Below, one piece after another: positions 22,375-62,525 of a DNA stretch of 64,000 nucleotides (its first letter is position 1; every line of letters begins with the position of its first letter). A model generated the notes under the pieces. The model was not told where the DNA came from and did not search any database. It saw only the letters and a list, made by a program, of their open reading frames with translations. Source of the DNA: Escherichia coli (GTDB taxonomy: Bacteria > Pseudomonadota > Gammaproteobacteria > Enterobacterales > Enterobacteriaceae); NCBI RefSeq assembly GCF_003334315.1, contig NZ_QOWR01000009.1; one strand, written 5' to 3'. A program made the translations under genes and the position numbers.

Positions 22375-22458
22375 TTAATTTCGATTATTTTTCCCGGATG
22401 GAAAATTCTTAGAAACCGATCACATACAGCTGCATTTATTAAGGTTATCATCCGTTTC

Positions 22459-22545
22459 GCTGAAAAACATAACCCATAAAATGCTAGCTGTACCAGGAAC
22501 CACCTCCTTAGCCTGTGTAATCTCCCTTACACGGGCTTATTTTTT
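22459..22545 (+). ncRNA. cyaR: CyaR (RyeE) Hfq-dependent sRNA
   Basis: Begins GCTGAAAAACATAACCCATAAAATGCTAGCTGTACCAGGAACCACCTCCTTAGCC and ends in a hairpin plus TTTTTT; matches the CyaR sequence as I recall it. Confidence 0.8.
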
Positions 22546-43239: not shown

Positions 43240-43365
43240 TCCTGCCATAACGTGAAGAAGCAATGACCTGGTGGTCCGTGACTTCCCTACGCTGGCATTA
43301 TCCAGATCAGGTGATACGGGTATTTCTCAGCCTTCACGCAGAAGGGCACCCCGAGTCGTTTGGTT
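43240..43365 (-). promoter_or_regulatory. TPP (thi-box) riboswitch in the thiM leader
   Basis: Minus-strand sequence GGGGTGCCCTTCTGCGTGAAGGCTGAGAAATACCCGTATCACCTGATCTGGATAATGCCAGCGTAGGGAAGTCACGG is the canonical thiM thi-box aptamer. Confidence 0.9.
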
Positions 43366-43454: not shown

Positions 43455-43727
43455 TTATTTGATATATGAATCCAGCACCTTCAGAACGACATCCAGATCT
43501 TCTTCACGTTTTAGCTCATCCCCCTGGTGAACGATATGTTCCGTTAGATGACCTTTAATCACTTCCCGCATCAGACCGTTTACCGCGCCACGGATAGCAG
43601 CAATCTGTTGTAAAACTGCAGCGCATTCGTGCGGCTCGTCGAGCATTTTCTTGAGCGCCACGACCTGGCCCTGAATCTTACTGGCACGCGCTTTCAGTTT
43701 CTGTTTATCACGGATTGTATGAGACAT
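43455..43727 (-). CDS. rcnR: Ni/Co-responsive repressor RcnR (90 aa), CsoR/RcnR family
   Basis: CsoR/RcnR helical bundle; divergent from rcnA. Confidence 0.9.
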
Positions 43728-43775
43728 GGCAACACCTGGTTAACAAGAACATGAAAAATCATAGCACTATTAATC

Positions 43776-43810
43776 TACTGGGGGGTAGTATCAGGTACTG
43801 GGGGGGAGTA
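43776..43810. promoter_or_regulatory. Two adjacent RcnR operator sites of TACT-G6/7-(N)-AGTA type
   Basis: TACTGGGGGGTAGTA (43776-43790) and TACTGGGGGGGAGTA (43796-43810) in the rcnR-rcnA intergenic region. Confidence 0.8.
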
Positions 43811-43847
43811 GAATCAGATTGCCGAATTAATACTAAGAATTATTATC

Positions 43848-44672
43848 ATGACCGAATTTACAACTCTTCTTCAGCAAGGAAACGCCTGGTTCTTCATCCC
43901 CAGCGCCATCTTACTTGGTGCGCTTCATGGCCTGGAACCAGGGCACTCAAAAACGATGATGGCGGCGTTTATCATCGCCATCAAAGGCACCATTAAACAG
44001 GCGGTGATGCTCGGACTGGCAGCAACCATTTCGCATACCGCGGTGGTCTGGTTGATTGCCTTTGGCGGGATGGTGATCAGTAAGCGCTTTACTGCTCAAT
44101 CAGCAGAACCGTGGCTCCAGCTGATTTCCGCAGTGATCATTATTGGCACCGCGTTCTGGATGTTCTGGCGTACCTGGCGCGGCGAACGCAACTGGCTGGA
44201 GAATATGCACGGGCATGATTATGAGCATCATCACCACGATCACGAAGATCACCACGACCATGGACATCATCACCATCACGAACATGGCGAGTATCAGGAT
44301 GCCCATGCACGAGCCCATGCCAATGACATTAAACGACGCTTTGATGGTAGAGAGGTCACCAACTGGCAAATTTTGCTATTTGGCTTAACCGGTGGCCTTA
44401 TCCCCTGCCCGGCAGCAATTACCGTGCTGTTGATATGCATTCAGTTGAAAGCCCTGACACTGGGCGCAACACTGGTCGTCAGTTTCAGCATTGGCCTGGC
44501 GTTAACGCTTGTCACCGTAGGCGTTGGCGCAGCAATCAGCGTTCAGCAGGTCGCAAAACGCTGGAGCGGATTTAACACTCTCGCTAAACGCGCCCCCTAT
44601 TTTTCCAGTCTGTTGATTGGCTTAGTTGGTGTGTATATGGGCGTACATGGCTTCATGGGCATAATGCGATAA
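43848..44672 (+). CDS. rcnA: Nickel/cobalt efflux protein RcnA (274 aa) with His-rich cytoplasmic loop
   Basis: TM segments flanking a His/Asp/Glu-rich loop (HGHDYEHHHHDHEDHHDHGHHHHHEHGEY). Confidence 0.92.
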   Translation: MTEFTTLLQQGNAWFFIPSAILLGALHGLEPGHSKTMMAAFIIAIKGTIKQAVMLGLAATISHTAVVWLIAFGGMVISKRFTAQSAEPWLQLISAVIIIGTAFWMFWRTWRGERNWLENMHGHDYEHHHHDHEDHHDHGHHHHHEHGEYQDAHARAHANDIKRRFDGREVTNWQILLFGLTGGLIPCPAAITVLLICIQLKALTLGATLVVSFSIGLALTLVTVGVGAAISVQQVAKRWSGFNTLAKRAPYFSSLLIGLVGVYMGVHGFMGIMR

Positions 44673-44890: not shown

Positions 44891-45229
44891 ATGACCATTA
44901 AAAATAAGATGTTGCTGGGTGCGCTTTTGCTGGTTACCAGTGCCGCCTGGGCCGCACCAGCCACCGCGGGTTCGACCAATACCTCGGGAATTTCTAAGTA
45001 TGAGTTAAGCAGTTTCATTGCTGACTTTAAGCATTTCAAACCAGGGGACACCGTACCAGAAATGTACCGTACCGATGAGTACAACATTAAGCAGTGGCAG
45101 TTGCGTAACCTGCCCGCACCTGACGCCGGAACCCACTGGACCTATATGGGTGGCGCGTACGTGTTGATCAGCGACACCGACGGAAAAATCATTAAAGCCT
45201 ACGACGGTGAGATTTTTTATCATCGCTAA
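44891..45229 (+). CDS. rcnB: Periplasmic Ni/Co homeostasis protein RcnB (112 aa; ORF-track start 44711 is an extension)
   Basis: Signal peptide MTIKNKMLLGALLLVTSAAWA. Confidence 0.85.
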   Translation: MTIKNKMLLGALLLVTSAAWAAPATAGSTNTSGISKYELSSFIADFKHFKPGDTVPEMYRTDEYNIKQWQLRNLPAPDAGTHWTYMGGAYVLISDTDGKIIKAYDGEIFYHR

Positions 45230-62219: not shown

Positions 62220-62525
62220 TATACTCTAAATAATTCAAATTGGTCCGATCCGGCGCACCGTCCCAATGGCCTGGATTATAAATCTCATTATCTTAATTGC
62301 AACGGGGTCCAGCCGTGGTTATAATTCGTTCGTTGGAACACGATGTTGCACAGGCTGTGGTGTTAGGCCTGAAAATAGTAAATAAAAGAACCTGCCTCAC
62401 CAGCAGGTTTTTTTATTTACTGTGATCTGCTTTCCAGATATTTTTCGCTCAAACAACTAATGCGCCAAACATTTATTGCGCGTAAAATATCGTTTATTTC
62501 ATTAATACATTTCAGGGATGAATAT

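Follow-up and report, generated by a model that had tools for sequence, protein, structure and literature searches.

Two short G-tracts lie between the divergent genes rcnR and rcnA of Escherichia coli. The question raised by this locus is whether they are the operator of the nickel- and cobalt-responsive repressor RcnR and, if so, how one pair of sites could serve both genes. The DNA analysed here, called the window, is a stretch of 64,000 nucleotides, and all coordinates refer to it. The original prediction, made from the letters of the window, placed two TACT-G6/7-AGTA sites 20 bp apart at 43776–43790 and 43796–43810, located them between rcnR and rcnA, and took them to match the RcnR recognition pattern. 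Pattern search returns exactly these coordinates, and the interval 43728–43847 is precisely the 120-bp gap bounded by the two start codons, which we treat as the intergenic control region.

The genes on either side are clearly assignable. The minus-strand gene (43455–43727, with its ATG ending at 43727) encodes a protein of 90 residues that matches the NCBIfam RcnR equivalog NF011613 from end to end with 197.3 bits, against a cut-off of 138, and is the Ni(II)/Co(II)-responsive repressor of the CsoR/RcnR family. The plus-strand gene (43848–44672, 825 nt, with its ATG at 43848) encodes a Ni/Co efflux membrane protein of 274 residues and matches the nickel/cobalt efflux transporter subfamily NF007454 with 557.5 bits (cut-off 195). 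Downstream of rcnA is rcnB (44891–45229, plus strand), the accessory periplasmic subunit; its product gave no NCBIfam match, and it is identified from RefSeq, which annotates RcnB at the corresponding place in K-12 and strain CP53. The region is matched by 5368 of 5426 complete E. coli genomes, in which RefSeq places rcnR and rcnA at these positions. The gene neighbourhood, yegX-thiD-thiM-(TPP riboswitch)-rcnR / rcnA-rcnB-yehA-yehB, is that of K-12.

The repressor itself appears fully equipped. Published work on RcnR (PMC7055735) assigns metal ligation to the N-terminal amine, His3, Glu34, Cys35, Glu63 and His64, and contacts with DNA to Arg14 and Lys17. All five ligand side chains and both DNA-contact residues are present in the protein of the window, and hence the sites have a cognate repressor, with its metal ligands and DNA contacts intact, encoded next to them.

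It is worth adding some observations on the surrounding sequence. The 3′ end of rcnR is adjoined downstream by a TPP riboswitch (RF00059, 71 bits, 43267–43363, minus strand), which forms the leader of thiM and is annotated by RefSeq in the matching records. Other matches above the Rfam gathering score, all on the plus strand, are two Sib antitoxin RNAs (8620–8768 and 8955–9097), CyaR (22457–22542) and an OrzO-P antitoxin RNA (62339–62414); no tRNA genes were found in the 64-kb window. The exceptionally His-rich loop that had been noted in the rcnA product is real. It spans residues 118–157 (44199–44318, plus strand), with 18 histidines in 40 residues, and includes the string HHHHDHEDHHDHGHHHHHEH (residues 127–146, nucleotides 44226–44285), with 14 histidines in 20. 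RcnA homologues from other lineages are far longer, at 324–377 residues compared with 274 (loci L009, 763–1878; L010, 766–1899; L043; L011). Where the translation was inspected the extra length is in the His-rich loop, which in an Erwinia metagenome-assembled genome has long HQH and HDH repeats.

The recognition motif of RcnR is TACT-G6-N-AGTA, which occurs twice in the rcnR-rcnA intergenic region. The primary sources are Iwig & Chivers (2009, J Mol Biol 393:514) and Blaha et al. (2011, Biochimie 93:434), here as summarised in PMC7055735, PMC3902906 and PMC7105576. Both sites in the window are exact matches. Site 1, proximal to rcnR, is TACT-G6-T-AGTA (TACTGGGGGGTAGTA, 43776–43790, plus strand), and site 2, proximal to rcnA, is TACT-G6-G-AGTA (TACTGGGGGGGAGTA, 43796–43810, plus strand), so that its tract is an uninterrupted G7. 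They are separated by the 5-bp spacer TCAGG (43791–43795), and the order along the plus strand is ttaatc, TACTGGGGGGTAGTA, tcagg, TACTGGGGGGGAGTA, gaatcag. Each has the form of a type 1 site, with inverted TACT/AGTA arms 7 bp apart and an unbroken run of at least six G. Both G runs (43780–43785 and 43800–43806) are on the plus strand, 14 nt apart. A repeat finder reports the pair as a direct repeat of 15 nt, 93% identical, with a gap of 5 bp and a start-to-start distance of 20. Both lie inside the gap between the divergent genes, as the published arrangement of two copies requires, and with the flanking genes confirmed the proposed match to the RcnR pattern holds.

This pair does not arise readily by chance. 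The pattern TACTGGGGGGNAGTA has only two matches on either strand of the 64-kb window, namely sites 1 and 2. In 100 dinucleotide-preserving shuffles there was no exact match in any (mean 0.00). With up to two mismatches allowed, 0.16 matches are expected from shuffling, and two were reached in one of the 100 shuffles. The twin sites, including their outer arms, are bracketed by an imperfect inverted repeat of 16 nt (43764–43779 and 43807–43822, 75% complementary). The DNA flanking RcnR sites is reported to wrap around the complex, and this repeat may reflect the extended contacts or the wrapping.

A comparison with the K-12 operators had been suggested as a check, and it shows both sites and the spacer to be identical. 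The tandem type 1 operator of the K-12 chromosome, where the motif was defined, has the same two 15-bp sites and 5-bp spacer as the window, and its flanks, gene order and RcnR protein are also the same. Over 171 bp aligned across the intergenic region there is a single difference, at 43750 (C in the window, T in K-12), which is outside the sites. RcnB is likewise identical to the K-12 protein, and RcnA differs at two residues, G100S and D134H. None of the differences is in the operator.

The original prediction had singled out the G7 of the second site as a variant, and here it was mistaken. G7 is the K-12 reference, with N being G. Site 2 is a normal site because the published motif allows any base at that position, and the same G7 is kept in 77 of the 78 loci from other species described below. 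The description of the operator as established biology was apt, since it has already been characterised.

On the basis of the identity with K-12, and of Iwig & Chivers (2009) and Blaha et al. (2011) as represented in secondary sources, we are highly confident that the twin sites are the native tandem type 1 RcnR operator of the divergent rcnR-rcnA(B) control region, and that they would act to repress both genes.

How far the arrangement extends beyond E. coli was examined by scanning one genome per species, among species other than E. coli, for two copies of the motif 0–30 bp apart. This gave 78 loci, spanning the Enterobacterales, Vibrio, Shewanella and Chromobacterium. The set was fetched by exact motif, and the counts that follow therefore measure constraint where the motif exists and not its frequency among rcnR loci. 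In 75 of the 78 loci the left neighbour of the twin motif is a divergent rcnR homologue (58–100% identity), and in 70 the right neighbour is rcnA, with 31–40 nt between site 2 and the rcnA start. Spacers of 5 bp (61 loci) and 6 bp (16 loci) account for all but one of the loci, in which a spacer of 24 bp holds a third site; apart from an initial T, present in 76 of 77 unique loci, the sequence of the spacer is unconstrained. When six distant lineages are aligned, the mean column identity is 55% and both sites are invariant. At the N of the motif, which is nominally free, all 78 loci have T in site 1, and 77 have G in site 2. This T/G asymmetry extends over all the lineages named above, against a background of freely drifting spacer and flanks. 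In a Ralstonia homologue there is only one site, TACTAGGGGGGAGTA.

Some loci depart from the two-site plan. In eighteen, a third RcnR-like site begins 21 bp left of site 1, and the distance from site 1 to the rcnR start is larger, at 62–98 nt. In 13 of them, from Enterobacter, Lelliottia and Klebsiella (L020, L021, L045, L051, L055, L060, L063, L065, L068–L070, L082 and L084), the third site is TACTCCCCC(T/G)GAGTA, with its tract on the other strand; in the remaining five, from Kosakonia and relatives (L044, L056, L058, L064 and L088), it is AACTGGGGGGGAGTT. Vibrio diabolicus (L054, 4404–4457) has three tandem sites at a pitch of 19–20 bp, of which the middle one has a tract of only five G (TACTGGGGGTAGTA). 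Three Shewanella loci (L012, L034 and L038) combine the twin operator with an rcnR homologue of 67–68% identity, and no rcnA homologue was found within the fetched locus. The divergent gene there encodes a membrane protein of 116 residues from the uncharacterised PRK09272 family (NF006751, 188 bits) and is apparently monocistronic; it is possibly an unstudied Ni/Co-responsive gene.

The same set of loci is informative about the promoters. Four bases beyond site 2 there is an invariant T (76 of 76 loci), so that together with the final TA of the site the sequence always reads TAnnnT. In the window this is TAGAAT (43809–43814, plus strand), which overlaps the last two bases of site 2 and is a candidate −10 hexamer of the rcnA promoter. 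Its conservation points to an overlap between site 2 and the −10 element of that promoter. On the other strand, 39 of the 57 unique loci with two sites have TGnTAnnnT at a fixed offset from site 1. The window has TGcTATGAT (43758–43766, minus strand), 9 bp after site 1 on that strand, which gives TGCTATGAT when read from 43766 down to 43758. This is plausible as an extended −10 element for rcnR, and from its position we infer that the −35 position of the rcnR promoter would lie inside site 1. The proposed overlap agrees with the claim made in the title of Blaha et al. (2011), as cited in PMC7055735, of an operator shared by both genes.

A generic sigma-70 scan gave three weak matches, compared with 2.9 expected in shuffles, and neither candidate −10 element was among them, because neither is accompanied by a recognisable −35 hexamer. 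The three matches were not adopted: they are at chance level, and one of them is inside rcnR, while another would place the transcription start beyond the rcnA ATG. A further element is found directly before the rcnA start codon, where the near-palindrome AAGAATnATTnTC (43835–43847, extending over 43829–43853) is kept in most enterobacterial loci. Compared with the 19-bp Fur consensus it scores 14 of 19 in two registers, and 15 positions in the window score equally well or better. Possible roles are those of a Fur site or of an element in translation initiation.

The mechanism by which RcnR acts at such sites has been described for the identical K-12 sequence, with binding by the apo-protein and release by Ni(II) or Co(II) (PMC7055735, PMC3902906, PMC7105576). 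Without metal, one tetramer binds each TACT-G6-N-AGTA site, contacting the minor groove at the TACT and AGTA arms and reading the unusual A-like shape of the unbroken G-tract (PMC3902906). Ligation of the metal gives the N-terminus an ordered structure and limits the access of Arg14 and Lys17 to DNA (PMC7055735). Applied to the window, site 2 would overlap the −10 element of rcnA and site 1 would cover the −35 position of rcnR, as conservation suggests, and the 20-bp pitch, at about two helical turns, would place both tetramers on one face of the DNA. Because of these two overlaps, and of the placing of the tetramers on the same face, one pair of sites would be able to shut both divergent promoters. 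Once RcnR has bound metal and left the DNA, the efflux genes rcnA-rcnB and rcnR itself would all be transcribed.

Within E. coli the operator is largely, if not completely, uniform. The 64 bp at 43751–43814 are present exactly in 4815 of 5346 matching complete genomes (about 90%). Queries of 55–65 bp were used with megablast, as a 35-bp query of the twin sites alone gave no match, probably through low-complexity masking. Exact matches to queries with an altered run, among about 5340 genomes, showed site 2 with G8 in 105 genomes and with G6 in 126, and site 1 with G7 in 29 and with G5 in 28. Each class makes up 0.5–2.4% of the genomes, and together they come to some 5% of the E. coli assemblies. 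A gained G is about as frequent as a lost one, the longer run shows roughly four times as many changes as the shorter, and the strains that carry them are not related; one O157:H7 isolate, for example, has a site 1 of G5, and other O157:H7 genomes are canonical. Because the changes are symmetric, scale with run length and are scattered over unrelated strains, they are probably homopolymer length errors in the assemblies. Outside the runs there is a frequent substitution, C43815A, just to the right of site 2. In one strain, 097H6 (NZ_CP187781.1, locus L008), a 5-bp deletion at the equivalent of 43807–43811 takes out the right arm AGTA of site 2 together with the candidate TAGAAT hexamer; either the strain is a naturally occurring mutant of the operator and promoter, or the deletion is an artefact of assembly.

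This variation bears on a different reading of the tracts, in which they form a slippage-prone contingency switch, the length of the run altering promoter spacing or operator strength and thereby varying rcnA expression in populations (phase variation). Variants of one G more or less do occur among complete assemblies, as such a switch would produce, but they show just the pattern expected of assembly errors, and frequent variation in run length among close strains was not seen, with 4815 of 5346 genomes exact. Moreover the G6-T and G7 tracts are kept in 77 of 78 other species, and runs of six or seven bases are short for a contingency locus. We regard a switch of this kind as very unlikely. 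Another proposal, that the tracts fold into an intramolecular G-quadruplex that controls transcription, has in its favour two long G runs on the same strand 14 nt apart. Four runs are needed, however, and no run of three or more G or C other than these two occurs in the intergenic region; the structure is excluded on these grounds, and its probability is negligible.

It might also be argued that the sites are bound mainly by some other regulator, such as FrmR or Fur, or act only as structural or promoter DNA, with the presence of RcnR being incidental. FrmR, the formaldehyde-responsive paralogue that controls frmRAB, belongs to the same DUF156 CsoR/RcnR family as the window RcnR, and recognition of a G/C tract flanked by AT-rich repeats is a property of that family (PMC3902906). 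For Fur, a related expression module includes rcnA (PMC10164565). FrmR differs from RcnR in its effector and its target genes, though, and the protein encoded beside the sites scores only 76.5 bits against the FrmR model (cut-off 133), compared with 197 bits against that of RcnR, which marks it as RcnR and not FrmR. The only Fur-like sequence is elsewhere, in the palindrome at 43829–43853, and is statistically not distinctive. An rcnR homologue adjoins the sites in 75 of 78 loci, and the literature assigns binding at this exact motif to RcnR (PMC7055735, PMC3902906, PMC7105576). A principal role for another regulator thus seems extremely improbable, and the tandem type 1 RcnR operator is the reading that we retain.

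Related systems help to place this operator. A plasmid-borne copy is found in the IncHI2 rcnR-rcnA cassette (Salmonella plasmid CP048303.1), which has both sites exactly, with T in site 1, G in site 2, a 5-bp spacer and TAGAAT after site 2 as in the window. Its RcnR is 92% identical, whereas the sequence of the spacer and the flanks have diverged, and the annotated rcnA coding sequence is 1116 nt compared with 825 nt here. More distantly, the type 2 operators of CsoR (Streptomyces lividans CsoR, PMC3902906) resemble RcnR sites in having G/C tracts between AT-rich TAC/GTA inverted repeats, in the readout of an A-like DNA shape and in being bound by a repressor of the same family that is released by metal. 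They differ in that each type 2 site has two short G/C tracts with intervening bases and takes two tetramers, while the type 1 site of RcnR has one unbroken tract and takes one tetramer (PMC3902906).

The constancy of T and G at the nominally free position leaves room for a more elaborate proposal, namely that the two sites are not interchangeable, that site 1 is under a second constraint, that the G7 of site 2 has a tuning function and that some of the run-length variants are real alleles. Site 1 together with the next, conserved T reads TAGTAT, at the −35 position of the proposed rcnA promoter, and this might be the second constraint. The full G7 of site 2 might tune the affinity of RcnR or the shape of the DNA, and some of the alleles with one G more or less could be real and retune Ni/Co efflux in E. 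coli. As a whole we consider this proposal, which is drawn from patterns of conservation, rather unlikely, and the T/G asymmetry may already be covered by Iwig & Chivers (2009).

The twin operator is thus already known in every respect tested, and its identification is correct but ordinary. The present analysis makes small additions: the T/G asymmetry, the invariant −10-like overlap at site 2, the third sites in some genera and the rare run-length variants. The operator is of practical use as an annotation anchor for the rcnR-rcnA-rcnB nickel/cobalt efflux locus. The two sites, their pitch of 20–21 bp and the nominally free N are conserved far beyond E. coli, which is of possible interest for engineered RcnR-based cobalt/nickel sensors.
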